Source: an uncultured Gammaproteobacteria bacterium (GTDB lineage Bacteria; Patescibacteriota; Microgenomatia; UBA10105; UBA927). Taken from it: a stretch of 64,000 nt of DNA. This document shows, piece by piece, positions 1-37,935 of the stretch. Position numbers and translations under genes: made by a program. The DNA lies in the NCBI GenBank assembly GCA_964527425.1, contig CAZGOA010000004.1:35691-99690 (forward strand). The letters are read 5' to 3'. The stretch's first letter is position 1; every line of letters begins with the position of its first letter. The notes beneath the pieces were generated by a model. The model made no database searches. It was not told the origin of the DNA and worked only from the letters and a program-made list of their open reading frames with translations.

Positions 1-2749
1 ACTCATCACCTAAAGCTAGCGTTACTTCATCAACAACAGCCTGTTGTCTCTCGTTTAAATGGCCATGTTCATAGTTAATCGGTGAAACTCCGTTAAACGC
101 GAGTTTTTCATTAATAATTCTATACCTTCTACTTAGAGCTTCGACGAGTTGAGAAGCGTTTTGAACAGGTTCACCATTTACACCTTTTATTCCATTAAAC
201 ACACCATTCGCTCTCCATATATTAAATTGCTCAACTGCATCTTTTGATTTACCATCAATCATCACATCTAAAATTGTTTGCGGTCTGAATTCTGCAATTT
301 CATGCCACATATCATGAATTTTATGTTCCGCTTTGTGATGATCATCATGTGATTCCGCACCTAAAAAATCTGCACCTGCCATACGCAATCTCATACCCAT
401 TGCAATTCCTCTGGCGTGACCTTCCCCTTGTCCATACATTTGATCTGCCTGTTTAATATATTCTGCAATTCTCCATGTCGATGAAAAATAATCATTATGC
501 CCAGGAAATCCACCTAAAACACTTTCGCCTACTTTAGTTTTTATTGCATAAAATAAATCATCATTAGAGACATCTTCCCATCTTTTAGGGATATCTTTTT
601 CTGATCTTCGAGAACCAGTTTTCATATCTACACTATAAAAAGATTCCAAATTACCAGGGTTTTCATTAAAATATTCTTGCAAAAACTCAAGAGCTTCTGG
701 ACTTCCCTTACTGATTCCTTGCCTGCTCATGTATTCATGAATTTGATGATCGACATCTCTTCCAATGCCTGTAGAATTTGCAGCCATTAAAGAAGCTTGC
801 CTTAACATGGCTTTCTTACCTGGATTTAAACGCATGTAGCGCTCCATATGTCTAATAAGATCCATGCTTTCAATTAACATTTCGTTAGAATCACGTATGA
901 ATGATGATGGTTCCTGATCAATAGGTAACGGTTTTCTTGCTCGTAATAATGGCAATAAATCTCGTTGAGAAATTACGGCTACGTCTTCTGCTAACAACAT
1001 TAGAGATTCAACATCACTTTCTTTGATTTTTCTTTTATTATTTCTCTCCTCTATTTCATTTTCTGGTAAAATTTTGTTAAGTGGATCATTACCTTTGCCA
1101 AAGGTATTACGGTACATATCGTTATACAATTCGGCTTCTTGTAATAATTCATTCTTTAATTTCTCATTAACTTCTTTATATGTATAAGCGGTAATCCTTC
1201 TTAATTTCCCGTCTTTATCTCTTCTCGCCTCATTTAACATTTCAATATATTTTTGATACACAACATCTACCATACCGCCTTCTTGAGATAAAACGTGATG
1301 CATTCCTTTGGTACCCACACCGCTCAAGATTTTTTTTGCCGATTCTGGATCTCCTGTTTTTGAAATAATATATGAAGAATACATTACTCCCATGCGGTAA
1401 TTCAAAATATCTTTCACTTCTTCTAAATCTCTCATTCGTTGCTCCACAAATTGATCAACTAAACCATCACCATTTTGACTTAATAAATCATAATAACTTA
1501 CTCCATCAATTTTTTTTCTTCTTAAAAATGTCAAAGCGTTCTCTCTAGTATTTCGCAGTGTAATATAATCCTGAAATAAACTGATTTGTTGTTGAATTTG
1601 TTGAGCGCTTTCTTGATTGGCGTTTTCAAATTCTTTACGCACACTTCGCAATAAATTTTCAACTCCACCAAAAGGATCTTCATACAATTCTTCTATGCCG
1701 TCCTCAGTAAGTTCAAACCGGCTAAGTCGATTAAACTCTTCGTTTTGAGGTCTTCTATTATTTAAATCACGAATTGAACGTTGTATAGAATCTTCTTCTG
1801 GATCATTTGATTGAGATTCAACATATGTATTAGTTTTTTTAGGATTTATCAATGACTCTTTTCTATCGTTAACTCTTCCTTTAACCTTCATTATCATTAC
1901 TTTTTGCTCTTGAGTTAAATTGTTAAATTCTGAAGATTTTATAAGTTCATCAATTTCTCTATCATACAGGACTAGCCAATCTTCATCTTCAGATTGACCT
2001 GCATTTAACTTTTGCTCAAGCACTAAAATCTCATCTCTTATTTTTCCTACTGGTAATGATTCTAAATCAAGATCATATAAGATACCCACATCTTCTTTTA
2101 ATACCTCTGCTAATTCTTGTATTTCAGGAATGTCACCGTATACTTTTTTCATTTCTTTAAGATACTCCTTGGCTTCCTTGGCAGCTGGAGATCCAAAGCC
2201 TGTGGCAACCGCAATACTAACCAAGTCTACAGCAACCTCTTTAGCAATATCTGAATCAGTTTTTCCTTCTTCTGGTTCTGAATATAATTTATTTACTGCT
2301 GCTAAGGTGCGTGCATCACTGGGATCAGTTTTGATAACAGCTCGCGCGTTATCAAAATTTGGGTTATCAATTTTTTCTTGTTTGTTTTTTTCAAAAACAT
2401 CTAATGATTCACTATCCGGATCAATTTTTCCTAACCAATATGCCTCTGGAACTCTCGCACGAAGTTTTTGTTCCATGCTGGATTGTGCATCACGAAAAGT
2501 TTCGATAATTCCTTTAAAAGGTGGCAACACTTGTTTAACATCTTTTTCAGGTGGTGGAAACAATTTTTTAAAAACGTCTGGAATAGTACGTTTATCATCA
2601 GTTTTTAGCGGAGCTTTTACTGTTTTATCAGCTACTCTAGTAGTTATTTGTTTTGCAGCCTCAAGAAGAACCTCACCAATGGGCTTGGCTTTTTTTTCTT
2701 CTTCTTTTTTTGTGGCATCAAACCCTCCATACCGTTCTATTCTAGCCAT
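1..2749 (-). CDS. Very large hypothetical soluble protein; the N-terminus is complete (ATG at 2749) and the C-terminus runs beyond the window edge. No membrane-spanning helix was seen, and there is a His-rich patch (HDDHHKAEHKIHDMWHE).
   Basis: I translated the minus strand by hand from the ATG at 2749 down to position 1: more than 916 codons with no stop. The sequence is charged and alpha-helical in character (MARIERYGGFDATKKEEEKKAKPIGEV...). The ORF track omits it because the stop codon lies outside the window. The plus-strand ORF 2130..2813 is its antisense shadow. Confidence 0.65.
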   Translation of the reverse strand, partial: MARIERYGGFDATKKEEEKKAKPIGEVLLEAAKQITTRVADKTVKAPLKTDDKRTIPDVFKKLFPPPEKDVKQVLPPFKGIIETFRDAQSSMEQKLRARVPEAYWLGKIDPDSESLDVFEKNKQEKIDNPNFDNARAVIKTDPSDARTLAAVNKLYSEPEEGKTDSDIAKEVAVDLVSIAVATGFGSPAAKEAKEYLKEMKKVYGDIPEIQELAEVLKEDVGILYDLDLESLPVGKIRDEILVLEQKLNAGQSEDEDWLVLYDREIDELIKSSEFNNLTQEQKVMIMKVKGRVNDRKESLINPKKTNTYVESQSNDPEEDSIQRSIRDLNNRRPQNEEFNRLSRFELTEDGIEELYEDPFGGVENLLRSVRKEFENANQESAQQIQQQISLFQDYITLRNTRENALTFLRRKKIDGVSYYDLLSQNGDGLVDQFVEQRMRDLEEVKDILNYRMGVMYSSYIISKTGDPESAKKILSGVGTKGMHHVLSQEGGMVDVVYQKYIEMLNEARRDKDGKLRRITAYTYKEVNEKLKNELLQEAELYNDMYRNTFGKGNDPLNKILPENEIEERNNKRKIKESDVESLMLLAEDVAVISQRDLLPLLRARKPLPIDQEPSSFIRDSNEMLIESMDLIRHMERYMRLNPGKKAMLRQASLMAANSTGIGRDVDHQIHEYMSRQGISKGSPEALEFLQEYFNENPGNLESFYSVDMKTGSRRSEKDIPKRWEDVSNDDLFYAIKTKVGESVLGGFPGHNDYFSSTWRIAEYIKQADQMYGQGEGHARGIAMGMRLRMAGADFLGAESHDDHHKAEHKIHDMWHEIAEFRPQTILDVMIDGKSKDAVEQFNIWRANGVFNGIKGVNGEPVQNASQLVEALSRRYRIINEKLAFNGVSPINYEHGHLNERQQAVVDEVTLALGDE

Positions 2750-2818: not shown

Positions 2819-3598
2819 TCATGGAACATACGGGAGATTGCGCTTAAATGCGTTCTTCTCTACCCTGGACAGAATCTTGTCAACTGATTGTTCATTTTTC
2901 AGAACATTTTTTACCTCTTCCTCGCTCTTTTGTTGATCAAAGTACAACTTTAAAGCACTATCTGCCTGCTCATAGGTAAAACCCAATTCCTGCTCATCTG
3001 ACTGGCCTTCCCAAAGATTTGCAGACGGCGGCTTAGTCAGAATATTAGTGGGCACTTGTAAATACTCCGCAATTGTATAAATCTGTGTTTTATACATTTC
3101 CCGTAGTGGTTCTATGTCACTTGCTTCATCACCATACCGTGTATAGTACCCAAGATAATGCTCGCTTTTATTTTCTGTTCCTATGACAAGCGCATTTCTT
3201 TTTTTAGCCATATCATATAAAAGAATCATTCGAACACGAGCCATGATGTTTCCTTTTCGTATAGCATCCATAGTGTTGTCAAGCTTAACAAATACATCCA
3301 CAATACTCTGAATATCCTGTTCTACTACGTGTTCAGCCGGTATACCACAGCTTGAAATGACCTCTCTGGCATGAAGGACAGACTGCTTACCTAATTCTCC
3401 ATACGGCATCAGAACCGGAAACACATGCTCAACACCTAAAGCATTTACAGATAGACATAAACTTGTGGCTGAATCAACACCTCCTGAAACACCAATAACA
3501 ACATCTTGAAAACCTTCTTTTGTTACAGTTGACTTGATAAATTGCGTAAGCTCATCAACAATAACACTCGGGTTAATGATAAATAGATCTTTGTTCAT
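2819..3598 (-). CDS. nadE: NH3-dependent NAD+ synthetase
   Basis: N-type ATP-pyrophosphatase motif GVSGGVDSA, about 260 aa, and overall similarity to NadE. Confidence 0.8.
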   Translation of the reverse strand: MNKDLFIINPSVIVDELTQFIKSTVTKEGFQDVVIGVSGGVDSATSLCLSVNALGVEHVFPVLMPYGELGKQSVLHAREVISSCGIPAEHVVEQDIQSIVDVFVKLDNTMDAIRKGNIMARVRMILLYDMAKKRNALVIGTENKSEHYLGYYTRYGDEASDIEPLREMYKTQIYTIAEYLQVPTNILTKPPSANLWEGQSDEQELGFTYEQADSALKLYFDQQKSEEEVKNVLKNEQSVDKILSRVEKNAFKRNLPYVP

Positions 3599-4164
3599 GA
3601 ATGATATAAGTCATGTTCTGTTATATAGTCATTAACCGTAGGGGCAACAAAACCATATAAAGACAGACGACGCATGACCCTATCTCTTACTTTAGTAGAA
3701 GAAATATTGCTGACGATTAAACTACTGTCATTTACCATAGTCATATTCTCATATAACGGCTCGTTAGGATAACCATATCGAGGAAAAACAAAAAAAGGAA
3801 GTCGCTTAAGTAATTCTTTCCAGTTTCCCCATAAATGAAAGGTGGGTAACTGATCAGATCCAATGACAAAATGATACGTATGTTCTTGAGGCAAAAAAGG
3901 CAGCAAATTAATTGTGTTTCCATCTAATTGATTATCAATTTCTAGAGAGGAAACAGAAAATCTTGGTTCCTGGGACTCTTTAACCATACGTTCTACCATG
4001 GATAAACGATGTCTGGGATCTACAGCTTCTTTTCGAAATGTATGTTTATATGAAGGAAGAAACCATATTGCTTCACAGTCTGTAAAATCTAAAACTTGTT
4101 GTGCAATTAATAAATGTCCTAAATGTGGTGGATTAAACATCCCACCAAGTAAACCTACCTTCAT
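3595..4164 (-). CDS. nadD: Nicotinate-nucleotide adenylyltransferase
   Basis: N-terminal GGMFNPPHLGHL, which is the (H/T)xGH nucleotidyltransferase motif. Its start overlaps nadE by 4 nt and its end overlaps the upstream ATPase gene by 4 nt. Confidence 0.8.
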   Translation of the reverse strand: MKVGLLGGMFNPPHLGHLLIAQQVLDFTDCEAIWFLPSYKHTFRKEAVDPRHRLSMVERMVKESQEPRFSVSSLEIDNQLDGNTINLLPFLPQEHTYHFVIGSDQLPTFHLWGNWKELLKRLPFFVFPRYGYPNEPLYENMTMVNDSSLIVSNISSTKVRDRVMRRLSLYGFVAPTVNDYITEHDLYHS

Positions 4165-6359
4165 ATAATTTTTTTGGTATACCTCTCTCTTGAAGATCTT
4201 ACTACTTTTTGTCTGTTTTGATTTCTGCTCTTTGGCAGTGGGAGTGTTATAGCAGAAAAGGGATTCGATGTTTGATTATCAATAGATAATTTTAATACTG
4301 TTTGGTAATTACCTAGCCCCACAAGTTCCTCTTCTTTATATTTTTGTCCAAACTCTCTTGACAGAATTTGTGCATCTTGTGCTCCTACGCTAAATGAAGC
4401 AATTGATCCGCAGTTACCAAAAATAGCTTTTTGAACGTCCTCATCTATTTGTCCAATATATTGATTTGCCAACATAAGATTTAGTCGATATTTTCTCGCT
4501 TCTGATAAAATTTTAATAAAAGATGATGTAGCAAAATTCTGAAACTCATCCACATATAAATAAAAATCTCGACGATCTTTTTCTTCTATATATACTCGAT
4601 TCATAGCCGCCAGCTGCATTTTGGTAATCATCATTGCACCTAATAAAGCACTATTGTCTTCACCCAGTTTCCCTTGTGATAAGTTCACTAACACAATTTT
4701 ACCTTGATTCATCATATCTTCTAGATTTATTGTCGAAACCGGACTGCCGACAATTTGACGAATTGTTTGAGAAGATAAAAACTGTCCAACTTTATTAAGA
4801 ATTGGTGATATTACTTCACTTTTCATTTGTGGACTAAACTGCCCGAATTCATTTATCCAAAAATTTTTAAGCACTTGATCCTCTAACCTTTCTACAATTT
4901 TACTTCGATACTTCTCGTTGGCTAATAATTCTGGAACCTGTAACAGGGTTGCGTTAGGAACAGAAAGTAGCGTCAGAATCGTATTTCGCAAGATATATTC
5001 CAGTCTCGGTCCCCAACTATGGGCATAGAGTTTATAAAAAATAGACACTATTCCTGATGAGACAAGCTCTTTATATACAGGATTTTTAACTTCTAACGGG
5101 TTAAGGTGAAAAGGGTGTTCAATGTCTGCTGGATCTAAATATGCCACATCATTAATTCGATATGAAGGAATAAAATCCAACAACACATCACATAAATCTC
5201 CATGAGGATCAATAATCGCTACACCTTCTCCATTTCTCATATCATTAATAACCATGTTTGCAATCATGGTCGATTTTCCTGTTCCGGTTTTTCCAACAAC
5301 ATACAGATGTTTTCTTCTGTCATCTTTTTTTATACCAAATGTAGCAGTGGTATTTTTATACTCAGTTCTAGCAAAAAAGTTTATCTTTTTCTTCTCTTCT
5401 TCATTGTCTACAGACACAGGAAGGTTGTCTGGTGCCTCCCCTATTAAACGCGATCCCCAGGAAATATTTTTTACTAAAGATAGAGACAACCCAGGGGGAT
5501 GCCAGAGAGAAGCTGTCTCAGAAACACTCAATATTTGATTTCGAGGAATAAAACCATCAGTCCGTTCCATCATTACTTTTACAAACTTATTTTTAAATAT
5601 ATTCCAAGGTTCAGATAATACCAATCCATTCCCCTCGCCCTGTGTAAAGACACCAAATGATCCAGCAAGTTCGTTGAGCACATGTTTAGCATGTTGCTGG
5701 TCTGGTCCTACCACCAACACCCGCAAAGCAGCTTTAAATCCTGTTTGTGTTGTTTTGGTTTCAATGAGTGATGCATACGGATGTGCTTTTGCCTTACCAG
5801 GATTATTGGGATCTGGAACACCTTTTGAGACAATTCGTGCCGCAGATTGTTGCCAACCATGTCCAGCTGGCCTCATCCATAATTGAATTGCTACTGCTTC
5901 TTTACTGGATAATTTAGCCATTTGACCGAACACACTGGCTAACATATCAATATCTTTTATTTCTCTATATGTTTTGAGTGGATAATAATACGAGTTTGAT
6001 AATACTAACTGCCCTACTACATGCGGATGTGCTACGAAATGACTCATATAATCTTCTACTTCTAAAAAGATTAGTTTGGGATAGTGAGCAGTCATTTGAC
6101 TCTGGACATATGTCACCAGTGTTTGGGGAATGTTAATAAACAAATGAATTCGTGTGTTTACTGAAATTATTTCAAAAGAAAACATGGGTGCAGTATGAGA
6201 ACGAAATAATCTGCCCAATACTCCCCCGTGATGAGAAGAAGAGCCTAAAGCCGCAAAAATCTGTTCCATTGCCAATGGGGACTCTTCACTATCTTTACTG
6301 TTTCTTATTTCCAGCAAAATACGCTTATTTTCCATCTGTTTAATGGTATCACACAGCAA
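4161..6359 (-). CDS. VirD4/TraG/TraD-like type IV secretion coupling ATPase (paralog 1), carrying an N-terminal extension of about 330 aa
   Basis: Walker A YVVGKTGTGKST followed by DPHGDL, and a Walker B-like YVDEFQNF. It is paralogous to 57821..60169. No N-terminal membrane-spanning helix is apparent. Confidence 0.7.
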   Translation of the reverse strand: MLCDTIKQMENKRILLEIRNSKDSEESPLAMEQIFAALGSSSHHGGVLGRLFRSHTAPMFSFEIISVNTRIHLFINIPQTLVTYVQSQMTAHYPKLIFLEVEDYMSHFVAHPHVVGQLVLSNSYYYPLKTYREIKDIDMLASVFGQMAKLSSKEAVAIQLWMRPAGHGWQQSAARIVSKGVPDPNNPGKAKAHPYASLIETKTTQTGFKAALRVLVVGPDQQHAKHVLNELAGSFGVFTQGEGNGLVLSEPWNIFKNKFVKVMMERTDGFIPRNQILSVSETASLWHPPGLSLSLVKNISWGSRLIGEAPDNLPVSVDNEEEKKKINFFARTEYKNTTATFGIKKDDRRKHLYVVGKTGTGKSTMIANMVINDMRNGEGVAIIDPHGDLCDVLLDFIPSYRINDVAYLDPADIEHPFHLNPLEVKNPVYKELVSSGIVSIFYKLYAHSWGPRLEYILRNTILTLLSVPNATLLQVPELLANEKYRSKIVERLEDQVLKNFWINEFGQFSPQMKSEVISPILNKVGQFLSSQTIRQIVGSPVSTINLEDMMNQGKIVLVNLSQGKLGEDNSALLGAMMITKMQLAAMNRVYIEEKDRRDFYLYVDEFQNFATSSFIKILSEARKYRLNLMLANQYIGQIDEDVQKAIFGNCGSIASFSVGAQDAQILSREFGQKYKEEELVGLGNYQTVLKLSIDNQTSNPFSAITLPLPKSRNQNRQKVVRSSRERYTKKII

Positions 6360-6436
6360 TCAAGAATGAGAATTTGTGGTTAATCTACGTGAAATGAAAA
6401 AATATTAGTTTTCACGATCAGTACGCGACATTCTGC

Positions 6437-7669
6437 TTGCTTGAACACAAAAAAGCACTTACAATGATACATATGCTAGAACAGCACCCTGTTCCTCAAA
6501 ATGTCACGACGTTTCAGTTTAGATTAATTGGTGACATGACGCTAAAACAATTCGGCTATCTTGCCGGGGGGGCGATATTGGCATACATTTCTTATAATTT
6601 ACCTCTGCCATTCTTTTTTACGTATCCGTTAACTGCAATTTTTGCTTTTGGTGCAATTGGATTTGCCTTTATTCCTGTAGAAGAACGCCCTATGGATGTA
6701 TGGTTTGTTTCTTTTGTAAAAAGCATCTATAGTCCTACTCAATATGTATGGCAACGTGAAGAGATGAGTTCTCCTAAACAATCTTCGCCAGTTATTGGTA
6801 TGGGTCCATTAACTCAAATTATTGACCGCATTCTGCCTATCCCAAAACCACGTCAGGTGCCATCCACTTCACAACCTACAACAACGACACAGACTCAGTC
6901 ACCACTTGCTCCGCTATCACAAGGTTTGTCTTTTTTAAAATCAAAATCTCTAAACCTGAACACTTCACAAAAGCCAGCGTTTCAATCACTAACTCCCGTT
7001 ATGGCTAGTACACCTATCCCTCAAAAAACTGCAGGACAAACAAATCCACCACCAACTCCTGAACCTGCACAACAACCCGATGATTCCAAGCCGACTCTTA
7101 CGAGTCTAGAGCAACGCCTAAAACAAATGGAGGAACAGCTGGAGAAAGAACGTCAAGAGAAACAACGCTTAGCCACAATCCACGAACAACTTTTACAAAC
7201 TCAACAAGAAAAAAAATTATTAGAAGAAGAGCTGCAAAAAATTAAACAAAACATACAACCTTCTGTGCCAGATAAAAAGGATGATATTGTAAAGCAGGCA
7301 GGAATACCGGTTCCACCACAACAACCAGTAGTTTCTAGTTTATCGAGTCAACCAAATGTGATAACCGGCATTGTCCGTGAACAAAATGGTAATCTGCTGG
7401 TAGGCATTTTGGTCACAGTAAAAGACAAAGATGATATTCCAGTTAGAGCTCTTAAAACCAATAAATTGGGCCAGTTTGCTTCTTCTACTCCCTTAAACAA
7501 TGGAACATATACGATAGAAGCAGAAGATCCCAAAAAACAATTTTCGTTTGATTTGGTTGATGTAACACTCTCTGGTCAAGCCTTAACACCACTTCAGCTT
7601 ATTGCAAAATCAAAACAGCAACTCGAAAGACAACAACTTGAACGTGCTCTGTTTGGAAACAAACAATAA
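6437..7669 (+). CDS. Membrane protein with two N-terminal membrane-spanning helices (PrgI/VirB3-like position), then a Pro/Thr/Gln-rich low-complexity region, a coiled coil and a C-terminal beta-sandwich domain resembling a carboxypeptidase-regulatory domain
   Basis: Hydrophobic helices LAGGAILAYISYNLPLPFFFTYPLTAIFAFGAIGFAFIP. The gene sits immediately upstream of the VirB4 homolog. The C-terminal segment ITGIVREQNGNLLVGILVTVKD...GTYTIEAE fits the pattern of a CarboxypepD_reg-like domain. Confidence 0.45.
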   Translation: MLEHKKALTMIHMLEQHPVPQNVTTFQFRLIGDMTLKQFGYLAGGAILAYISYNLPLPFFFTYPLTAIFAFGAIGFAFIPVEERPMDVWFVSFVKSIYSPTQYVWQREEMSSPKQSSPVIGMGPLTQIIDRILPIPKPRQVPSTSQPTTTTQTQSPLAPLSQGLSFLKSKSLNLNTSQKPAFQSLTPVMASTPIPQKTAGQTNPPPTPEPAQQPDDSKPTLTSLEQRLKQMEEQLEKERQEKQRLATIHEQLLQTQQEKKLLEEELQKIKQNIQPSVPDKKDDIVKQAGIPVPPQQPVVSSLSSQPNVITGIVREQNGNLLVGILVTVKDKDDIPVRALKTNKLGQFASSTPLNNGTYTIEAEDPKKQFSFDLVDVTLSGQALTPLQLIAKSKQQLERQQLERALFGNKQ

Positions 7670-7685
7670 TTTTTAATAAACATAT

Positions 7686-8348
7686 ATGTCTCAACCTGTC
7701 ATTCCGATTCGTTCTTCATCACAACAATTTACCGAAATTGAAGATATTGACAGAGACTTAGTTATGTTTCGCGATGGTTCTTGCGCAATGATATTATCTA
7801 CAACTGCTGTAAACTTTGGCCTGCTTTCTGAAAAAGAACAGGAATCATTGATATATGCTTATGCGGGGTTGTTAAATTCTCTGACGTTTCCCATGCAATT
7901 GCTCATTAGAACACAACAAAAAGATATTACTTCTTATCTTGAGGCACTCAAAGAACAAGAGCAAAAACAAAAAAACCCAAAGCTTGCGTACAGTATTCAT
8001 GGATATAGAGAATTTATTTCTCAAACAGTAAAAGAAAAAAATGTCTTAGATAAAAAATTTTATTTGGTTATTCCCTTTTCCAGCCTTGAAATTGGGAATT
8101 CGGCAAATGTTCTTTTTGGCAGCAAACAAAAAGGCCTTCCTTACCCAAAGGCACATATATTTGACAGAGCACAGATGGTGTTAGCACCGAAGAAAGACCA
8201 GATGATTCGCTTGGTGAGCAGACTGGGTTTAAAAGTAGATCAACTCAATACGGCTCAGTTAAAACGGTTTTTCTTTACTGTATACAATCCTGGAATACCC
8301 ATACCTGAAAGCATGACCGAAGAAAATTCTATAAAGGATACTCCATGA
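7686..8348 (+). CDS. VirB4-like ATPase, N-terminal domain fragment (about 220 aa)
   Basis: FTEIEDIDRDLVMFRDGSCAMILSTTAVNFGLLSEKEQESL matches the conserved N-terminal domain of VirB4/CagE/TrbE. The gene ends in an ATGA overlap with the next ORF. Confidence 0.55.
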   Translation: MSQPVIPIRSSSQQFTEIEDIDRDLVMFRDGSCAMILSTTAVNFGLLSEKEQESLIYAYAGLLNSLTFPMQLLIRTQQKDITSYLEALKEQEQKQKNPKLAYSIHGYREFISQTVKEKNVLDKKFYLVIPFSSLEIGNSANVLFGSKQKGLPYPKAHIFDRAQMVLAPKKDQMIRLVSRLGLKVDQLNTAQLKRFFFTVYNPGIPIPESMTEENSIKDTP

Positions 8349-10285
8349 AAGTAACAGATATAGTTAAAAAGTTTCTGAATCCAATGCCTGAAAACACACC
8401 CGTTAAACACACGACGTCTGGCCCGCTTCTTGTTCGTGATATTATTGCCCCACCGGCGATAGAAGTTGATTTTGACTATATTAAAATTGGAGAATATTAT
8501 TTTCGAACGCTTTTTGTTGCTGGATATCCACGTTTTGTTTCTGCAAATTGGCTAGAGCCGATTATCAGCTTTGATCACACGCTTGATATTTCAATGTTTA
8601 TATATCCCAGCAGATCTGAAGAAATTTTAAGCAATCTAAAACGAAAAGTCGGAGAGATGGAGGCGACCATTCAATCAGATCTTAAACGAGGAAGGGTTAT
8701 TGAACCATCCGTTCAAATAGCACTCGAAGATGCACTCACACTGCAACAGGAGTTGGCCAAGGGAGCAGAACGCTTTTTTCAATTTGGTTTGTATATAACC
8801 ATTCCCGCTAAATCAAAAGAGGATCTTGATAAAACAACAAAACAGGTAGAATCAACGCTTGGATCTTTATTAATTATTGCCAAACGCGCCATTTTACAGA
8901 TGGAAGAAGCGTTTAAGACAACACTTCCTATGGGTCAGGACAGACTGGTTGTTACAAGAAACATGGACACAACCTCACTTGCCACCACATTTCCTTTTAC
9001 AACCTCTGAGCTGACAGCAAACGAGGGGATTTTATATGGCATCAATGAACATAATGACAGTTTGGTAATTTTTGACCGTTTTAGCTTAGAAAACGCAAAC
9101 ACCCTGGTGTTTGGAAAGTCTGGATCAGGAAAAAGCTACACAGTAAAACTAGAAATTATTCGAAGCCTCATGTTTGATACTGAAGTGATTGTTATTGATC
9201 CTGAAAACGAATATGAGTCTTTGACGCATACGCTTGGCGGAGAATATATACGATTTAGTTTTGATAGTCCCACTAAAATTAATCCATTTGATTTAGCCTT
9301 ATTAAAAAATAGCGAAGAAAGTGAACTGAATCAAAAAATATTATCTTTACACGGCTTTTTTAAAGTAGTTATGGGAGAACTTAACCCATCAGAAGACGCT
9401 CTTTTAGATCAAGCTCTTATTCTTACATATAAACTACGCGGTATTACTCCAGATCCCTCAACACAATCACAAGAACCGCCTCTTATGGAAGATCTCTATA
9501 AAGTATTAATTGGCATGGAAAACACCATGGCAAAGAGCTTGGCAGACAGAATTGAAAAGTTTGTAAAGGGCAGCTTGGTGGGAATATTTGATAAACAAAC
9601 TAACATTGAAATACGAAACCACCTGACCGTTTTTTCGATAAGGGATCTTGAGGATTCTCTGCGTCCAATTGCTATGTATCTTATTTTGGATTACATTTGG
9701 ACTCGGGTTAAGCGTGAGAAAAAACGACGAATTCTTATCGTAGATGAGGCTTGGTATATGATGAGGTTTCCTGATTCTGCAGAATTTCTCAACTCAATAG
9801 CAAAAAGAGCTCGAAAGTACTATTTAGGAGTAACAACAATTACTCAGGATGTAGAAGATTTTCTTTCTGTTGATTTGGGTAAAACGATTATTTCTAATAG
9901 TAGTTTGCAGTTTCTCATGAAGCAATCACCTTCCGCTGTAGATAAGGTCGCAGAAGTGTTTAATTTATCTGAGGGAGAAAAACATTTGTTAATGGCTGCC
10001 GACGTTGGCGAGGGGTTGTTGTTTGCGGGCCCTGCACATGCTGCAATACGTGTTATCGCCTCTCCTGAGGAACATGCGCTTGCAACCACAAAGCCTCAAG
10101 AATTAGAGCAGAGAGCCAAAGAAGAAGAAAGAAAAGAACAAAACAGTAAACCCCCTGTGTCTCCTACCCCACCTTCTGCCCCACCATCTCCTTCAAATAC
10201 AACAACTGTTGTAGATGTGTCTCCATCTCAACAGCAAAACAGACCAGTTTTTACTACAGAAACAGTAAATATAAATTCCACATAA
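8345..10285 (+). CDS. VirB4-like type IV secretion ATPase, ATPase portion (646 aa)
   Basis: Walker A VFGKSGSGKSYT and a Walker B region ILIVDEAWYMM, which is the VirB4/TrsE/PrgJ-like architecture. The C-terminal tail is Pro/Ser-rich. Confidence 0.75.
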   Translation: MKVTDIVKKFLNPMPENTPVKHTTSGPLLVRDIIAPPAIEVDFDYIKIGEYYFRTLFVAGYPRFVSANWLEPIISFDHTLDISMFIYPSRSEEILSNLKRKVGEMEATIQSDLKRGRVIEPSVQIALEDALTLQQELAKGAERFFQFGLYITIPAKSKEDLDKTTKQVESTLGSLLIIAKRAILQMEEAFKTTLPMGQDRLVVTRNMDTTSLATTFPFTTSELTANEGILYGINEHNDSLVIFDRFSLENANTLVFGKSGSGKSYTVKLEIIRSLMFDTEVIVIDPENEYESLTHTLGGEYIRFSFDSPTKINPFDLALLKNSEESELNQKILSLHGFFKVVMGELNPSEDALLDQALILTYKLRGITPDPSTQSQEPPLMEDLYKVLIGMENTMAKSLADRIEKFVKGSLVGIFDKQTNIEIRNHLTVFSIRDLEDSLRPIAMYLILDYIWTRVKREKKRRILIVDEAWYMMRFPDSAEFLNSIAKRARKYYLGVTTITQDVEDFLSVDLGKTIISNSSLQFLMKQSPSAVDKVAEVFNLSEGEKHLLMAADVGEGLLFAGPAHAAIRVIASPEEHALATTKPQELEQRAKEEERKEQNSKPPVSPTPPSAPPSPSNTTTVVDVSPSQQQNRPVFTTETVNINST

Positions 10286-10289
10286 CCCA

Positions 10290-12635
10290 ATGGCTTTTTC
10301 TTTACAACAACTACAACGATATCAAAATGTTTTAGAATCTCCTCTCGAAGGAGGCCTATCACCAGATCCTTATTTATTTATAGAATCTATCGCCTATCTT
10401 TCTAAGTTTCATGAAGGGAGAGCGGCCATTAACATTCTTCCACGAGAAAAACGTCAACTCATAGAAACTAAACTCTTAAAAGAGGTTCCCCTGGAACAAG
10501 ATGAAATTTCGATGTTTTATGAGCTGCAAAAAGCGCTTCTTGATAATTTAACTGTTATTAAAACACTGTTGGAAGACGGGATTGATCCAGAAATAAAACA
10601 GCAAGCCGATATTTCAAGAAATACCGTAGAGGCTATAAACAGTGTTTCAACAGACAAAGAACAAACCAGACAACAATGGAAGCAAACCAAAGAAGCGATA
10701 ATAAAAGATTGGATAAGATTTTCCAGAGCTGATATTTCAGATAGTCAAAGGCAGGAACTTGAGCGAACGCTTAATAAGCTTAACCAGTTTACGTCCTCAC
10801 GAGAAGTGTTTTCTTTTTTAGACACAGAATCAGAACGCATAACAGCTCATTCACCAGCGAATTATTTAAACAACCGCTCCAGTGTTCCAGTTCAAGAGTA
10901 TCGGGAAGCAGAAGAAGCCATTACTTACGCTAATAATCGGATAGCCTTGCTTTCCGCTATGACAGATACAGTAGAATTTTCTTCTCGGGATGTGCCCCTT
11001 GTTGATCCTCACCTTCCTGCTGGAAAATCATCTTATCCGGACATGCGTCTCTATTTAAAAGCACAAGCGGTGTTACATAAAGACCCGAGGTTAAAACAGC
11101 TTAACAAAGAGAGAGAACAGATGGCTTTGTTAGCAGTAAACGCCGCAGCTCTTTCTCAAAGCCAGCTCCCTGAATCATTAACAAGAAATGATCCGGAAAT
11201 TGCTGAACAGACACTGCGAGCGGTGCTTGAACAGAAGTTTGGTGTTCTAAATGATAATCGCCTTACTCAGCTCATTGGCGACACCAGCAATCCAGAGACT
11301 GTTCAAAAAACATTAAGGGCAGTATTGTTTATTGATGCTGCTGTAACAGCGCAAGAAAATAAAACAACAAAACTGGCAAGACTTTTTTTTGAATCAACAG
11401 CCTTTGATCAATTTCAGCAATTCATTAAAAAACAGGCTCAAGAGAACAACAGTGCGTCTCTGTTGGGAATCACACAGGAACTGTTTTCAAGTTTAACAAC
11501 CGCTGCTCAAAATCCAGAAACCAATACGTTTTTACCGTATATTATGGGAATATACCTATCAGAAGGAACTGGAAAACCCAAAAGCCTGTTGGAACAACTA
11601 CTTAATAAAGGACAGCAAGCTGGAGATAACCAACTACTATTACTAGAAGGAGCAAAAGAATTCGTTTTCGCTTCACTAAACGATTCAAACAACAAAACCA
11701 TCTACATACCTCATCAGTTCCTACTCTCTTCTCTTTTGTCACAACAAAACCTTTTTTTCCGTGTTGCTAATCGGTTTTTTTCCTTTGGTAATTATATTAC
11801 CCCAGATAATTCAACTAAACGAGAACTAAGATCAGTGGGTGTTCAGACACGAAATGTATTGCTAGATGGATTAAGTGTTGCTGGACGTTCCTTCCCGAAG
11901 CCTTTTTCCTTGGTTTCTCGCGCTTTGGGCAGTCTATTTTCTCCTTCTCCGGGCAGGATGGCAGTAAATGCAGCTGCCTTTTTTGTAAAGAAAAACCCTG
12001 TGTTTTGGATTGTGACAGGTGTAATTATTGTGCTAATTACACTAATTATACTTCCTCAACTCTCTTCTCTGGATTCTCTACAAAGAAACATGATGGGTGA
12101 GTCTATTCAAACGGGAGGCGGCGGCGGAACAAATTACAGTAGTTTTGTTTGCGAAGCAGACGATCCTTCTTGTCAGCCTTGTGATCCAGCAACAGAAAGC
12201 TGCAGTTGGCCTGTAAACAACGGGTGTATAACCAATGGACCTGGTCCACAACACAAGACTAGTCCAGGCGGGGCAGCGATAGATATTAACGCACGTTTTG
12301 GTACAGGTGTGACTGCAACACATGATGGCGTGGTAGTTGGATTTAAATTTACAGACCCGGAAAACAAGTTTTCTTCAACGCCAGACTATGGAAACTACGT
12401 CAAGATCCGTGGTGTTCGTGCAGGAAAAACCTTCTATACAATTTATTCTCATCTTCGTCCTGTTGATCCTATTGGCATGTTTAATGGTTTACCTGTCAAA
12501 TCTGGTGAAGTTATTGGTTTTGTAGACAATACCGGATATTCTTTTGGAACACATTTACATTATGAGGTTATTGGACTTCCTCTTGAAGCGTTGTTCCCTT
12601 TTCCAACGACTCGGGGAACATGTGTGAACCGCTAG
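10290..12635 (+). CDS. Large membrane protein with a C-terminal M23 (LytM-type) metallopeptidase domain; a putative cell-wall hydrolase associated with the T4SS-like block
   Basis: M23 motifs GGAAIDINA...GNYVKI...YSHL...GEVIGFVDNTGYSFGTHLHYEV. There is a single membrane-spanning helix (VFWIVTGVIIVLITLIILP) after about 570 aa of helical N-terminal domain, followed by a cysteine-rich segment CEADDPSCQPCDPATESCSWPVNNGC. Confidence 0.7.
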   Translation: MAFSLQQLQRYQNVLESPLEGGLSPDPYLFIESIAYLSKFHEGRAAINILPREKRQLIETKLLKEVPLEQDEISMFYELQKALLDNLTVIKTLLEDGIDPEIKQQADISRNTVEAINSVSTDKEQTRQQWKQTKEAIIKDWIRFSRADISDSQRQELERTLNKLNQFTSSREVFSFLDTESERITAHSPANYLNNRSSVPVQEYREAEEAITYANNRIALLSAMTDTVEFSSRDVPLVDPHLPAGKSSYPDMRLYLKAQAVLHKDPRLKQLNKEREQMALLAVNAAALSQSQLPESLTRNDPEIAEQTLRAVLEQKFGVLNDNRLTQLIGDTSNPETVQKTLRAVLFIDAAVTAQENKTTKLARLFFESTAFDQFQQFIKKQAQENNSASLLGITQELFSSLTTAAQNPETNTFLPYIMGIYLSEGTGKPKSLLEQLLNKGQQAGDNQLLLLEGAKEFVFASLNDSNNKTIYIPHQFLLSSLLSQQNLFFRVANRFFSFGNYITPDNSTKRELRSVGVQTRNVLLDGLSVAGRSFPKPFSLVSRALGSLFSPSPGRMAVNAAAFFVKKNPVFWIVTGVIIVLITLIILPQLSSLDSLQRNMMGESIQTGGGGGTNYSSFVCEADDPSCQPCDPATESCSWPVNNGCITNGPGPQHKTSPGGAAIDINARFGTGVTATHDGVVVGFKFTDPENKFSSTPDYGNYVKIRGVRAGKTFYTIYSHLRPVDPIGMFNGLPVKSGEVIGFVDNTGYSFGTHLHYEVIGLPLEALFPFPTTRGTCVNR

Positions 12636-12656
12636 TGTTGGTGATACAATATTTTT

Positions 12657-13595
12657 ATGAAGCATGGCAAAAAAGTTCTGTTTGTTGCAGTAATACTAGT
12701 TGTTGGTATTGCTGCGTTTGTGTACACAAGAACACAACAAACCGCGTCTCCCCAGCAACTACCAGTCGTTTCTGACACCCAAAGCCTGGGTGTTTCTCCT
12801 AATTATTCAGACATATCACTCTCTCCTGTGTTTGTTTTGCCACAGAATGTAAACGTACCAGAATCTCTCCCGGAATATGCAGTAACATATGATATAAACG
12901 TGACTGGTTCTCTCCAGGAATTAGCAGATTTATTATTAATAAACACTCCTTCTAGAGAAAATTATGGTCTCGTTGAATGGAATAGCGAAGATTTTTTTCT
13001 TTCCTACAATACTCGTGACCAATCCGTTGCAATTACTCGTTTAAATCCTTCTTCTGATTTATTACAAAACCAAACCGAGCTGTTTGATGTGCTTAGACGC
13101 TCTGGGTTTCTTTCTTCAAATATTACGTTTAAAGAAGTATTAAACACTACTCTCAAAGGTGTTGATGGTGGAATTGGACCGCTGGCGGTTCAACAGTTTT
13201 CCGCGCATATTGACGCTTATCCTCTTTTTTTCTCTCTCGCTGATTCTGTATGGTTGTCTCTTAGAAAAACTCCTCAAGGGGCTGTGGACACTGTTTCTTT
13301 TACTATCCCCCCAAATCAGGCGACGAAAGAACAAACAAAAAAAACATTTTCTCTACCTCAGATATTAGAACTTTTAAACTCTGGTAAAGGAACACTGTTT
13401 TCTGCAGATTTTCAGGTAAATAAAGAATTTGGCACAATACCTAATTTTACAACAGTAACCGTTTCCTCCCTCTCTGTTGCGTATCTTCTTTCCGCAAATA
13501 ATACTCTGGCAAAACCGGTATTCGTGTTGCAAGGAATAGGCACGGGTTCAGGTAGAGCACAAGAGGTTATCTATCTCCTTCCTGCAACAAATTAG
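12657..13595 (+). CDS. Hypothetical secreted or membrane-anchored protein (N-terminal membrane-spanning helix or signal anchor)
   Basis: N-terminal KKVLFVAVILVVGIAAFVY. It is co-directional with the T4SS-like genes and directly follows them. The function is not recognisable; a VirB8-like role is speculation. Confidence 0.4.
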   Translation: MKHGKKVLFVAVILVVGIAAFVYTRTQQTASPQQLPVVSDTQSLGVSPNYSDISLSPVFVLPQNVNVPESLPEYAVTYDINVTGSLQELADLLLINTPSRENYGLVEWNSEDFFLSYNTRDQSVAITRLNPSSDLLQNQTELFDVLRRSGFLSSNITFKEVLNTTLKGVDGGIGPLAVQQFSAHIDAYPLFFSLADSVWLSLRKTPQGAVDTVSFTIPPNQATKEQTKKTFSLPQILELLNSGKGTLFSADFQVNKEFGTIPNFTTVTVSSLSVAYLLSANNTLAKPVFVLQGIGTGSGRAQEVIYLLPATN

Positions 13596-14701
13596 CCCTG
13601 GATTCTAACCGGCATGATTATGTGCAAAAAGTCTTCTCTTTTGGGTATTCTAAACACCACCGGACTAAGCGCTCCTGAAAGCCGAATGATTAATTGATCA
13701 GACTTTACATTCGATAAAAACTCTATGAGAAACCTGCTGTTTAAGGCAACGGTAGCATCTTCCCCTTCTACTTCTGCCTCTAGCTCTACTTTGTTTTCTC
13801 CTATTTGTGGCGTATTAGCGCTTACTTCTAGCGTTCCTGGAGAAATTGAAAAACGAAGAACCCCTGCACTGTCTCTTGCAAAAATACTTGCAGACTTAAC
13901 TGCTCGCGTTAACTCTTCGGTGTCTATGGTTACTGCTGTCTCATGAACAGAAGGAATGATTTTTTTATAATTAGGATAGTCTCCCTCTATTCTTCTGGTT
14001 GAAAGTTGTGTGTCTCCAAATGTAAAAGTTAATTGTCCATCTATTGATTCTGTAATGCGTATGCGTTCTGCTTCTTTTTCATCATTTCCTTGTTTAATTA
14101 CCTCTGTTACAGCTCTTGCTGGAATCACTATTGGTTGTGAAGAAACCTTGTCTTTCCCCTTTAAAGAAGCCATAGACATTCTATAGCCATCGGTTGAAAC
14201 GACGGTCGTTCCTTCTTCTGTTGGCTCCATTCTAACCCCCGTCAACAACGGTCTTGCTTCGTCTGTTGCAGCAGAAAACGAAACTAAGGAAAGAGAAGTT
14301 AATAGTTCTTCTTTTACCAGGTCTGTTCCTGTATTGCTAGTAACTTCTGGTGTTGGTGGAAACTCTGCTGCTACAAAGCTGGGTATTTTTGCTTTACTTC
14401 TGTTACTTTCGATTACTATCGTTTCTTTTTCTACCACTACAGAAACTGTTCCCCTAGAAAGAGAGGATAAAAATTCCTGAACTATTTTGGCCGGTAGACA
14501 ACAACGTCCTTCTTTTTCTATTTTTCCCGGTAATGCAGTTTTGATGGTTGTTTCAAGATTTGTTGCGGTTATTGAAATTGCACCATTTTCTGCTATGAGC
14601 AAACAATAACTCAGTATTGGCAGTTGAGGTTTTGTCTGTATAATTCTCGTTACTTTATTCATTGCTTTTATAAAGTGTTCCTGAAGACAAGTAATGTTCA
14701 T
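13592..14701 (-). CDS. dnaN: DNA polymerase III beta subunit (sliding clamp)
   Basis: The N-terminus MNITCLQEHFIKAMNKVTRII...LIAENGAISITATNLETTIKT is typical of beta clamps. The gene lies immediately downstream of dnaA. Confidence 0.85.
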   Translation of the reverse strand: MNITCLQEHFIKAMNKVTRIIQTKPQLPILSYCLLIAENGAISITATNLETTIKTALPGKIEKEGRCCLPAKIVQEFLSSLSRGTVSVVVEKETIVIESNRSKAKIPSFVAAEFPPTPEVTSNTGTDLVKEELLTSLSLVSFSAATDEARPLLTGVRMEPTEEGTTVVSTDGYRMSMASLKGKDKVSSQPIVIPARAVTEVIKQGNDEKEAERIRITESIDGQLTFTFGDTQLSTRRIEGDYPNYKKIIPSVHETAVTIDTEELTRAVKSASIFARDSAGVLRFSISPGTLEVSANTPQIGENKVELEAEVEGEDATVALNSRFLIEFLSNVKSDQLIIRLSGALSPVVFRIPKREDFLHIIMPVRIQG

Positions 14702-14891
14702 GCGTTCCTTTCTTAATTAAATTAAATAGTAATAGTATATAGAAATGGTCGTGGAAAAGTGTATATCTTTTTGATTTGTTTATCAAATCAACAAAATTCC
14801 TCTTTTCTTTTTTGGATATTTCGGTTTTTTCTGTTGATAAAGACGTGGATAAATCAGGTCTCCTTGTTGATATGTGGAAAAACAAAAAAAT
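14702..14891. promoter_or_regulatory. Candidate oriC segment: AT-rich dnaA-dnaN intergenic region with a cluster of DnaA-box-like 9-mers
   Basis: TGTTGATAA (14832-14840), cGTGGATAA (14844-14852), TGTGGAAAA (14873-14881), cGTGGAAAA (about 14750) and TTTGGATAT (about 14812). An AT-rich stretch at 14711-14750 is a possible DNA unwinding element. Confidence 0.55.
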
Positions 14892-16316: not shown

Positions 16317-16383
16317 ATCTTATGAAGAATTATCCACACTCGCAAGAGGCAGATTTAAGGTTTTTTGAAAACTTATCCACTGT
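16308..16383. promoter_or_regulatory. Three DnaA boxes upstream of dnaA (second oriC module, or an autoregulatory site)
   Basis: TATCCACA at 16311-16318, a perfect TTATCCACA at 16330-16338 and TTATCCACT at 16373-16381, all in the same orientation. Confidence 0.6.
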
Positions 16384-36892: not shown

Positions 36893-37933
36893 TTATTGGA
36901 ATTGTGTAACAGAAAGAGTAGGCTTTGCGGAGATTAATCGGTAATTATGCGGTAATTGGTGATAATATGCATATGAACCAGTAATCACAGCATTATCTGT
37001 ACATATTTCTATGGGAGGAATATGAAGAACAATATTATGTTCTTGACATAATTCAGAAAATTTTTCTCTTAAGCGGGTATTTGCTGCAACACCGCCGCCC
37101 AAAAGAATAGAAGTAGCATTATGTATTTCTGCTGCTCGTATAGTTTTTTTTACTAATACGTCGGTAATTGCTTCTTGAATTTCATATGAATAGAGACGTA
37201 TTACATCTTCGTTCGTTTTATCAGTTTGTCTCATCCAGTTTCGTTGAACTGCTGTTTTTAACCCACTAAAAGAAAAATTAAAATTATCTTCATGAATAAG
37301 AGGACGGGGGAGTGACAATTGCTGTTGTTTTGTAAGATTATGTTTTGTGGCTGACTGTTGTATTGCCAGACCACCACCATTACCAAACCCTAAAAGCCGA
37401 GCAGTTTTGTCAAAAGCTTCTCCTGCAGCATCGTCGATAGTTCCTCCTAGCCAAGTCATTTCTTCCAGTGATTTCATGAGAAACAATTCTGTATGACCTC
37501 CGCTAACAATAAGTGCAACCGCCGGGAATGAAATAGTGGGAGAGTTAATAACATTGGCATAAACATGAGCAAGTACATGATTTACTGGGATTAGAGGTTT
37601 GTTTACTAAAAAAGATATTGTTTTAGCTGTTTCAACACCCATGAGTAATGATCCTATGAGGCCAGGACCAATGGTTACAGCTATTGCATCAATGTGTTGT
37701 TCAATGGTTTTAAAAAGGTTTTTTTCCTGTGGAAATGCTACTTCTAGGGCTTGTTGAATAACGGGAAGCATAAAGGTCAACTGTTCTCTGGAAGCTAATT
37801 CTGGCAAAATGCCGCCATATTTACTGTGAAGATCATGAGACGTTGATATAACTGAAGACAGTATGTTAGTCCCATCTTGCACTACTGCCGCAGCGGTTTC
37901 ATCACAAGATGATTCAATGCCAAGTATATTCAT
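36893..37933 (-). CDS. tsaD: tRNA N6-adenosine threonylcarbamoyltransferase TsaD (Kae1/Gcp)
   Basis: MNILGIESSCDETAAAVV and the conserved His/Asp metal-binding sites of the family. Confidence 0.85.
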   Translation of the reverse strand: MNILGIESSCDETAAAVVQDGTNILSSVISTSHDLHSKYGGILPELASREQLTFMLPVIQQALEVAFPQEKNLFKTIEQHIDAIAVTIGPGLIGSLLMGVETAKTISFLVNKPLIPVNHVLAHVYANVINSPTISFPAVALIVSGGHTELFLMKSLEEMTWLGGTIDDAAGEAFDKTARLLGFGNGGGLAIQQSATKHNLTKQQQLSLPRPLIHEDNFNFSFSGLKTAVQRNWMRQTDKTNEDVIRLYSYEIQEAITDVLVKKTIRAAEIHNATSILLGGGVAANTRLREKFSELCQEHNIVLHIPPIEICTDNAVITGSYAYYHQLPHNYRLISAKPTLSVTQFQ

Positions 37934-37935
37934 GG

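Follow-up and report, generated by a model that had tools for sequence, protein, structure and literature searches.

A type IV secretion system (T4SS) locus lies directly beside the replication origin in a stretch of 64,000 nucleotides from an uncultured bacterium assigned by GTDB to the Microgenomatia (Patescibacteriota); the whole stretch, taken from contig CAZGOA010000004.1 (positions 35,691 to 99,690 of the forward strand, assembly GCA_964527425.1), is referred to here as the window. It is near certain that this locus is a T4SS of the Patescibacteria type, derived from the conjugation machinery of monoderm bacteria (MPF-FATA class), fixed by oriC and no longer mobile. The best explanation of the locus as a whole, with a probability of about 0.78, is an origin-fixed Patescibacteria T4SS acting as a host-contact translocation device. 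By analogy with related machines, its function would be translocation upon contact with a host in the service of an epibiotic lifestyle and not self-transfer. The full order of the locus is as follows: six pilin genes, a gene for a 493-aa polytopic protein (p493), a gene for a giant protein, nadE, nadD, a gene for a type IV coupling protein (T4CP) homolog (T4CP1), the genes for PrgI, TrsD, VirB4, an M23 cell-wall hydrolase and a YycI-like exported protein of 312 aa (sec312), and finally dnaN and dnaA. Within this order, the genes for the giant protein, NadE, NadD and T4CP1 are on the strand opposite to that of the other T4SS genes.

The genes of the window were identified from an open reading frame (ORF) map and by Pfam and NCBIfam profile searches on the translated products. 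They were compared with 80 loci that were obtained by scanning a single genome of each GTDB species and in which VirB4 is 62–80% identical to that of the window; these loci belong to Gottesman-, Woese-, Shapiro-, Curtiss-, Beckwith- and Chisholmbacteria, i.e., to Microgenomatia, and were analysed by ORF calling and by BLAST and hidden Markov model (HMM) searches. The counts for the C-terminal extension of PrgI, for the p493 family and for a part of the sec312 family come from single-pass phmmer searches. A sequence-only reading of the same DNA had named a VirD4-like ATPase, a PrgI/VirB3-like protein, VirB4, an M23 hydrolase and a secreted protein, and all of these genes were confirmed in kind and position by the ORF map and the profiles, while its gene list lacked the TrsD-like ORF of 220 aa. 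Many of the GTDB records with a Microgenomatia-type locus (L013–L092) bear the title “uncultured Gammaproteobacteria bacterium”, one is entitled “Bathyarchaeia” and one “Nevskiaceae”. These titles are most likely placeholders or mislabels, since the gene content and the 62–79% identity of VirB4 indicate Patescibacteria.

The core of the system is formed by PrgI, TrsD and VirB4. The match of VirB4 to the CD1110-family model (cut-off 325 bits) covers model positions 178–730, and the protein bears the Walker A motif GKSGSGKS and the Walker B motif VDEAW. Since the first ~177 positions of the model are missing from VirB4, the canonical N-terminal part is probably supplied by TrsD, which matches positions 126–233 of the VirB4_plasma model and is homologous, as a separate protein, to the N-terminal region of VirB4; the end of trsD and the start of virB4 overlap by 4 nt. 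VirB4 is 73–81% identical to proteins labelled Candidatus Gottesmanbacteria or Patescibacteria and 62–81% identical to chromosomal proteins of Gottesmanbacteria and other Microgenomatia, whereas its best plasmid-borne relatives, CD1110-family proteins of Firmicutes and Actinobacteria, share 31–38% identity with it, as do the VirB4 proteins of MPF-FATA conjugation systems. These identities place the organism near Gottesmanbacteria and are strongly suggestive of a position of VirB4 inside the Patescibacteria-specific clade, with the proteins of its own class. PrgI has a two-helix hairpin at about residues 37–72, followed by a Pro/Gln-rich linker, a coiled coil and a beta-sandwich resembling CarboxypepD_reg (PF13620, E 2.7e-6, under its cut-off). 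This C-terminal extension (window positions 6800–7669) was detected in 78 of the 80 loci.

PrgI, TrsD and VirB4 occur together, with the PrgI-family gene before trsD–virB4, in 79 of the 80 loci, while 22.6% of VirB3 homologs in Microgenomatia have been reported as associated with VirB4 (PMC12102498). They are usually followed by a gene for a large membrane protein whose C-terminus is an M23 domain, a gene for a ~340-aa protein with an N-terminal transmembrane helix, and dnaN–dnaA on the opposite strand. The arrangement PrgI–TrsD–VirB4–(M23)–(exported protein)–dnaN–dnaA thus recurs across the 80 loci and in several Microgenomatia lineages, as was to be expected from the proposal of the sequence-only reading that the block is a conserved chromosomal T4SS.

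The adjacency to dnaN–dnaA and oriC suggested in that reading was likewise borne out. The stop codon of sec312 overlaps the stop codon of dnaN, and the operon ends 1–3 kb from the DnaA boxes and from the minimum of the GC skew. Across the 64 kb there are 24 near-consensus DnaA boxes, seven of which sit in two clusters of ~90 bp, and the cumulative GC skew reaches its minimum at ~15–17 kb; the T4SS block therefore abuts oriC. Since the operon (6464–13595, plus strand) is transcribed towards the origin, convergently with dnaN, it should run head-on to the leftward replication fork. The same convergence of a T4SS operon on dnaN is seen in the gene table of Candidatus Southlakia epibionticum (S. 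epibionticum). Consensus scans of the window added little: sigma-70 promoter-like sites were fewer than in shuffled sequences, and terminator-like sites (14 versus 9.5±3.0 in shuffles) showed a slight, uninformative excess.

The rates of divergence differ among the genes. Compared with a sister species (contig L094), T4CP1, TrsD and VirB4 are 95% identical, with a nonsynonymous divergence (dN) of ~0.03 (0.029 for TrsD), and dnaA has a dN of 0.045; PrgI, dnaN and the YycI-like protein are 77–81% identical and the M23 protein 52%. The ATPases are thus the slowest-evolving genes of the neighbourhood, and the predicted envelope or host-facing parts evolve fast. A strongly constrained motor with swappable or fast-changing peripheral parts fits a machine that interacts with a host.

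Signs of mobility were sought as well. None of the genes called in the 64 kb or in a 7-kb extension to the left matched a relaxase family, a very divergent relaxase being conceivable. The sole tyrosine recombinase (61498–62367) is XerC/D-like, lies beside divIC and is 48 kb away from the block. Direct repeats of the att type flanking the block were represented by short A-rich chance matches only, no compositional break was detected at the block, and the block is present at the same place in all related loci. The view of the sequence-only reading that this is a chromosomal T4SS of the candidate phyla radiation type and no conjugative element is consistent with these results, with the relatives of VirB4 and with the synteny. 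The coordinates of the features are collected in Table 1.

Table 1. Features of the T4SS locus and of related genes. Coordinates are those of the window; negative values lie to the left of its first base and were read from contig L095 (window coordinate = 13599 minus L095 coordinate).
Feature	Coordinates	Strand	Evidence and remarks
Six tandem small VirB2-like pilin genes, two transmembrane helices each	-2361 to -4760		T4SS_pilin PF18895; on L095
p493, 493-aa polytopic protein	-878 to -2359	convergent with giant gene	signal peptide, ~140-aa ectodomain, 7 transmembrane helices
Giant protein (“big”), first 916 aa of ~1196	1–2749	-	full gene L001:815–4405(-); also L002:660–4406
nadE	2819–3598	-	Pfam NAD_synthase; context gene, non-secretion
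nadD	3595–4164	-	Pfam CTP_transf_like; context gene, non-secretion
T4CP1, coupling-protein-like P-loop ATPase	4161–6335	-	TrwB_AAD_bind, DUF87, TraG-D_C
Divergent intergenic region T4CP1/prgI	6336–6463		128 bp; presumed promoter region of both operons, from gene positions
PrgI/VirB3-like membrane protein	6464–7669 (alternative start 6437)	+	PF12666, E 6.8e-8
TrsD/TraC-like protein, 220 aa	7686–8348	+	NCBIfam TrsD, E 1.6e-6; PF26593 TraC-like
VirB4 ATPase, MPF-FATA/CD1110 type	8345–10285	+	NF045971, 408.5 bits
Bitopic M23 cell-wall hydrolase, 781 aa	10290–12635	+	PF01551, E 4.4e-14
sec312, membrane-anchored exported protein, 312 aa	12657–13595	+	N-terminal transmembrane helix; predicted YycH/YycI-like fold
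dnaN	13592–14701	-	TIGR00663 above cut-off
dnaA	14892–16271/16316	-	TIGR00362 above cut-off
DnaA-box clusters	14832–14920 and 16309–16381		mark the replication origin region
449-aa protein, upstream of T4CP2	55988–57337	+	
147-aa protein, upstream of T4CP2	57375–57818	+	
T4CP2, second coupling-protein paralog, 782 aa	57821–60169	+	Pfam/NCBIfam T4CP matches; tRNA-Ile next

The sequence-only reading had described the gene set as minimal, lacking any recognisable relaxase, VirB6, VirB8 or pilin gene. Within the window this absence holds, and no VirB2-type pilin gene was found there. The impression of a minimal set did not survive, since the window is cut inside the giant gene, and the pilin array and the VirB6-like candidate lie just outside, 0.9–4.8 kb to the left of its first base, while the TrsD-like gene had been overlooked inside. 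The contig on which the left-hand extension was read differs from the window at 1 base in 20,100, and the same locus is present on many public contigs. Five of the six pilins score above the PF18895 cut-off, and the sixth reaches 24.1 versus 26.6 bits. In 40 of the 80 loci, a member of the p493 family is encoded no more than 10 kb from virB4, usually preceded by a pilin array (arrays were found in 32). No match of p493 to PDB sequences was obtained. A pilin-like hairpin inside p493, suggested by jackhmmer, turned out to be profile drift, given that a pilin-only HMM misses the family and BLAST finds nothing. VirB6 homology was also sought both for p493 and for a polytopic region that precedes M23 in sister lineages, and neither gave a convincing Pfam or PDB hit.

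The giant protein has no match in Pfam or NCBIfam. At its C-terminus, a single hydrophobic helix precedes a Gly/His tail, a feature common to its positional orthologs in the Gottesmanbacteria clade. Its gene is located between T4CP1–nadD–nadE and the VirB6-like/pilin module, and across Microgenomatia a large minus-strand gene sits between the VirB6-like gene and prgI; judging by this position, the giant protein may belong to the T4SS. Two strains with 99.7% identical flanks carry alleles of 1196 and 1248 aa that are 20% identical, the break falling exactly at the start codon, and the version of the sister species cannot be aligned. Between the same strains, p493 is only 30% identical.

The M23 hydrolase consists of a ~565-aa N-terminal region, a transmembrane helix at about residues 570–590 and a C-terminal M23 metallopeptidase domain. 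According to the positive-inside rule, the N-terminal ~565 residues are predicted to be cytoplasmic and the M23 domain extracellular. The domain matches PF01551 with 52.9 bits (cut-off 28.7) and M23 structures in the PDB; its motifs (H...D, H and HxH) and flanking cysteines are kept in 39 aligned orthologs, apart from a few divergent members that differ at one site, and the spacing from H to D is longer, as in M23A-type enzymes. The N-terminal 560 aa found no homolog in the 80 loci by BLAST, jackhmmer or profiles built from a 30-member Gottesmanbacteria cluster, into which the equivalent regions from 30 other loci of that clade fall together. Against the sister species, the N-terminus is 22–68% identical and the transmembrane and M23 part 84–96%; the corresponding dN values are 0.56 for the N-terminal 560–600 residues and 0.055 for the rest, a more than 10-fold difference in rate. 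It is conceivable, if unlikely, that the Gottesmanbacteria T4SS holds a swappable host-specificity cassette, as could be read from the 20–30% identical alleles of the VirB6-like and giant proteins and from the N-terminus of the M23 protein, whose rate exceeds that of the motor ATPases more than 10-fold. Were the giant protein an effector recruited by T4CP1 or a host-range determinant, and did the YycI-like protein gate the M23 hydrolase, concrete candidate substrates and regulators would be at hand.

The last gene of the operon encodes sec312, a protein with one N-terminal transmembrane helix and tandem alpha/beta domains, whose family was found at the operon end in 41 loci by iterative searches, 13 of which are also reached in a single pass. 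Searching the whole library with a profile yielded 35 representatives, and an alignment of 44 sequences served as the input for AlphaFold2; the model has a mean predicted local distance difference test score (pLDDT) of 86.4 and a predicted TM-score (pTM) of 0.74, compared with a pLDDT of 37.7 when an alignment of 10 sequences was used. In a Foldseek search against the PDB, the only confident matches were to YycH (9a5d_B, 2fgt) and YycI (2o3o), with probability 1.0 and E of 2.5e-6 to 2.4e-5. The protein is thus predicted to fold like YycH/YycI, with which it also shares the build of an N-terminal transmembrane helix and tandem domains. A VirB8/TcpC-like scaffold with an NTF2-like fold, which had been the initial expectation, was considered and rejected, as no VirB8, TcpC, TraM or PrgL appears among the top 50 PDB hits. 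At the sequence level, a profile of the sec312 family retrieved from the PDB only noise from transmembrane and Pro-linker segments, and five family members weakly match the YcdB/YcdC repeat.

In Bacillus subtilis, YycH and YycI are membrane-anchored extracytoplasmic regulators of WalK, the kinase that controls autolysins. No sequence similarity to them was detected in sec312, but both stand in a context of cell-wall hydrolysis. Since YycH/YycI regulate an autolysin-controlling kinase and the sec312 gene directly follows that of the hydrolase, sec312 might position or restrain the M23 hydrolase; speculatively, its partner could be the hydrolase or the T4SS. No WalK/WalR-like genes are present among the annotated genes of the window.

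Coupling-protein homologs are represented by two paralogs. For T4CP1, the start at TTG 6359 adopted in the sequence-only reading is possible, but ATG 6335, which gives a protein of 724 aa, is likelier, being favoured by gene callers and by the lengths of the orthologs. T4CP1 combines an N-terminal DUF8128 (from precomputed Pfam hits) with a VirD4/TraD-like NTPase of the DUF87/HerA type, its match to TrwB in the PDB spanning the Walker A region. In both paralogs the Pfam families TrwB_AAD_bind, DUF87 and TraG-D_C score above their cut-offs, and the Walker motifs are intact (GKTGTGKS and VDEFQN in the sequence). T4CP1 has no predicted transmembrane helix, nor do its 28 full-length orthologs, save for one weak isolated segment in one of them; the N-terminal membrane anchor of a canonical VirD4/TraG/TraD coupling protein is therefore lacking. 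The protein is 94.6% identical to its ortholog in the sister species (dN 0.033). Start and stop codons overlap by 4 nt both between T4CP1 and nadD and between nadD and nadE, so that the three genes look like one operon. Only the Gottesmanbacteria clade (29 loci) has this divergent T4CP1–nadD(–nadE) unit, and there T4CP1 stands beside the T4SS operon in 28 of 28 loci with enough flank. Elsewhere such proximity is rare: 148 of 5,713 T4CP homologs have been reported near virB4 (PMC12102498), whereas in the Gottesmanbacteria clade a paralog devoid of transmembrane helices is adjacent.

The second paralog, T4CP2, shares 36% identity with T4CP1 over 702 aa and possesses what T4CP1 lacks, an N-terminal hydrophobic segment of ~38 aa as a membrane anchor. 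T4CP2 and the two genes upstream of it may be linked to the T4SS. The products of these two genes (449 and 147 aa) were checked as hidden relaxase or accessory proteins and rejected, having given no signal in Pfam, NCBIfam or the PDB. In two Curtissbacteria-like loci, a homolog of the 449-aa protein is encoded less than 10 kb from virB4.

The locus is a new instance of a system already described in the literature of 2023 and 2025, including its proximity to the origin and its essentiality in S. epibionticum. In the most extensive survey (Quinonero-Coronel et al. 2025, PMC12102498), covering 3,035 Patescibacteria genomes, nearly all VirB4 proteins fall into one clade inside MPF-FATA; VirB4 is found together with TrsD and PrgI, there are hardly any relaxases, arrays of VirB2-like pilins are abundant in Microgenomatia, where VirB6 and VirB8 are hard to detect, and T4SS genes lie near dnaA/dnaN in Microgenomatia and Paceibacteria. 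The present locus shares all these traits: an MPF-FATA VirB4 with TrsD and PrgI, no relaxase, a pilin array, no clear VirB6 or VirB8 homolog, and adjacency to dnaA/dnaN. A term search of the main text of that paper revealed no mention of YycI, of a CarboxypepD_reg extension of PrgI or of DUF8128, and neither a YycH/YycI-like terminal gene nor the hypervariable genes were found described there.

The closest experimentally studied counterpart is the cluster SEML1_0004–0019 of S. epibionticum ML1 (Saccharimonadia), most of which proved essential by Tn-seq when the bacterium grows as an epibiont (Wang et al. 2023, PMC10633639). Among its products are a large protein that ends in a peptidase domain and, encoded beside dnaN, a small exported protein resembling BT0923. 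According to the tables of that paper, the order is the same as here: pilins, a VirB6-like protein, a large unknown protein, PrgI, a TrsD-like protein, VirB4, a peptidase, an exported protein and dnaN–dnaA. In both cases there is no relaxase and the operons converge on dnaN. However, ML1 belongs to a different class, its accessory proteins have no detectable sequence similarity to those described here, and essentiality has been demonstrated for ML1 only. The single M23 protein of 781 aa contrasts with a 1113-aa peptidase protein and a separate lysozyme/CHAP-like protein in ML1, and the YycH/YycI-like terminal protein with PEGA and BT0923-like proteins, along with an NTF2/VirB8-like protein that has no counterpart here. 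Conversely, T4CP1–nadD–nadE stands beside prgI here, whereas no coupling protein was recognised in the ML1 cluster.

With the MPF-FATA conjugation systems (Trs of pGO1, Prg of pCF10 and the conjugative transposons of Clostridioides), the locus has in common a CD1110-type VirB4, PrgI/VirB3 and a membrane-bound wall hydrolase; with pGO1 it also shares TrsD, which is otherwise specific to the pGO1 subclass, and the VirB7/9/10 outer-membrane core is absent from both. It differs in being chromosomal and vertically inherited, with no relaxase found, in having VirB2-type pilins, which the Gram-positive systems lack, and in carrying an M23 hydrolase in place of their SLT/CHAP enzymes.

Few machines are known to be indispensable to the epibiotic life of the Patescibacteria, a very large and mostly uncultivated group, and the T4SS is one of them. 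The locus provides a clean, conserved Microgenomatia example with a complete parts list, which corrects the impression of a minimal apparatus. Beyond the descriptions of 2023 and 2025, it offers four leads: a YycH/YycI-like terminal component instead of a VirB8-like one, a T4CP without a membrane anchor next to the operon, a hydrolase whose predicted cytoplasmic domain is hypervariable, and a strain-variable cassette of a VirB6-like and a giant protein. These leads, which may serve the search for substrates and determinants of host specificity, are incremental and do not amount to discoveries or to a new kind of system.

By analogy with better characterised T4SSs, the machine may work as follows. 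A VirB4 hexamer, together with its split-off N-terminal module TrsD, would dock on the membrane hairpin of PrgI/VirB3, and this motor would extract pilins from the membrane and energise a channel formed by the polytopic VirB6-like protein. The membrane-tethered M23 endopeptidase would cut a local hole in the cell’s own peptidoglycan, being restrained or positioned by the anchored YycH/YycI-like (PepSY-like) protein, after which the VirB2-type tube could reach the host cell. Selection of cytoplasmic substrates would fall to the soluble and the anchored coupling-protein paralog. Pilus-mediated contact with export of substrates selected by the T4CPs is tentatively proposed as the mode of action, with a slight lean over import.

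Several observations weigh against an origin-fixed, host-contact translocation device of this design. To our knowledge, there is no Microgenomatia T4SS with a demonstrated function, and the locus described here is known from its sequence. No VirB8-like protein was found among the products of the window, and the assignment of p493 as VirB6 rests on topology and position, the match to TrbL/VirB6 being weak (2 of 24 members, E ~0.013). By homology with VirB3, the C-terminal beta-sandwich of PrgI is expected on the cytoplasmic side, an unusual place for a domain of this kind. The Foldseek matches of sec312 have TM-scores of only 0.36–0.49 and a root-mean-square deviation of 8–9 Å, probably because the orientations of the domains differ, and the proposed role of this YycI-like protein as a hydrolase regulator rests on analogy. 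The curated NCBIfam T4CP families are matched weakly, with 37–55 bits at best against cut-offs of 250–650 (T4CP1 itself scoring at most 37 bits). As these matches are weak and the T4CP homolog is dispensable in S. epibionticum (PMC12102498), a coupling role in the T4SS is uncertain, and T4CP1, being in an operon with genes of NAD synthesis, may do something unrelated.

The direction of transport might be the opposite, i.e., the apparatus could be an inward conduit comparable to ComB or Ced, through which a cell that cannot make nucleotides draws in RNA, DNA or cytoplasm of its host, with the T4CP-like ATPases as motors. ComB of Helicobacter pylori and the archaeal Ced system likewise combine VirB4-family and FtsK/TraD-like ATPases without a relaxase, and the two FtsK/TraD-like translocase paralogs, as well as weak NCBIfam matches to CedB and CedD, are in line with such a device, although neither a coupling to ComEC nor a Ced-specific component is present in the window. 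These matches amount to 54 and 36 bits, compared with 408 bits for the bacterial conjugative VirB4, and are thus far weaker than those to conjugative families. The abundance of genes for nucleotide salvage and interconversion in the window, together with NrdR and ribonucleotide reductase, would suit an importer. According to reviews, the role of the patescibacterial T4SS is unknown, both effector export and nucleotide import having been proposed, and a PNAS perspective lists the T4SS as a candidate route of nucleotide acquisition. A 2026 preprint on a cultivated patescibacterium reports that RNA is taken up from the host and that the host is pierced by tubular structures, which may be T4SS pili, but it leaves the mechanism open, and no experiment ties a patescibacterial T4SS to import. 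Moreover, in S. epibionticum the T4CP homolog is non-essential while other T4SS genes are essential (PMC12102498), which is not what would be expected if it were the import motor. Import is regarded as somewhat less likely than export.

A simpler device would be a VirB2-type adhesive filament that provides attachment without any translocation, the T4CP-like genes being functionally unrelated to it. Gram-negative bacteria need VirB4, and not VirD4, for pilus biogenesis, which is what such a filament would require. Six divergent pilin genes stand beside the locus, T4CP1 is co-transcribed with nadD–nadE and not with the T4SS operon, and in S. epibionticum the pilins are reported to be essential and the T4CP dispensable. 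On the other hand, the invariable presence of T4CP1 beside the operon in the Gottesmanbacteria clade, with conservation equal to that of VirB4, is difficult to reconcile with unrelated functions, and according to the literature these organisms already possess type IV pili for adhesion, so that a filament-only role appears improbable.

Finally, the idea that the locus belongs to an ordinary integrated conjugative element, intact or recently decayed, which came to lie near the origin by chance and whose T4SS would transfer the element's own DNA, is close to refuted: its monoderm ancestry (CD1110-family VirB4, PrgI, TrsD and a T4CP-like ATPase) and the presence of a tyrosine recombinase and two tRNA genes within the window are outweighed by the lack of relaxase matches and of flanking repeats, the distant XerC/D-like nature of the recombinase, the uniform composition, a synteny with dnaN–dnaA that is identical across several Microgenomatia lineages, and a VirB4 that diverges more slowly than DnaA and is remote from its plasmid-borne relatives.

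The remainder of the window around the origin-fixed T4SS is of a housekeeping character. It comprises groES/EL and the genes for IleRS, enzymes of purine and pyrimidine salvage, NrdR, ribonucleotide reductase, YidC and RnpA, as well as genes for a flippase, a Wzy-like protein, VanW and a solute-binding protein. The genes for nucleotide salvage and interconversion are clustered at 37900–48500 and 52200–55300 and encode adenylosuccinate lyase and synthetase, two IMPDH-like proteins, GMP synthase, adenosine deaminase, UPRTase and a cytidylate-kinase-like protein; the cluster, to which NrdR and ribonucleotide reductase may be added, bears on the idea of organisms that live on host nucleic acids.

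Two further features lie near the right end of the window. A gene for tRNA-Ile with the anticodon TAT is located at 60202–60275 on the plus strand; in most bacteria, AUA is decoded by a tRNA with a lysidine-modified CAU anticodon. Two neighbouring small ORFs of 89 and 86 aa (63168–63703, minus strand), taken from the ORF list, could represent a toxin–antitoxin pair.

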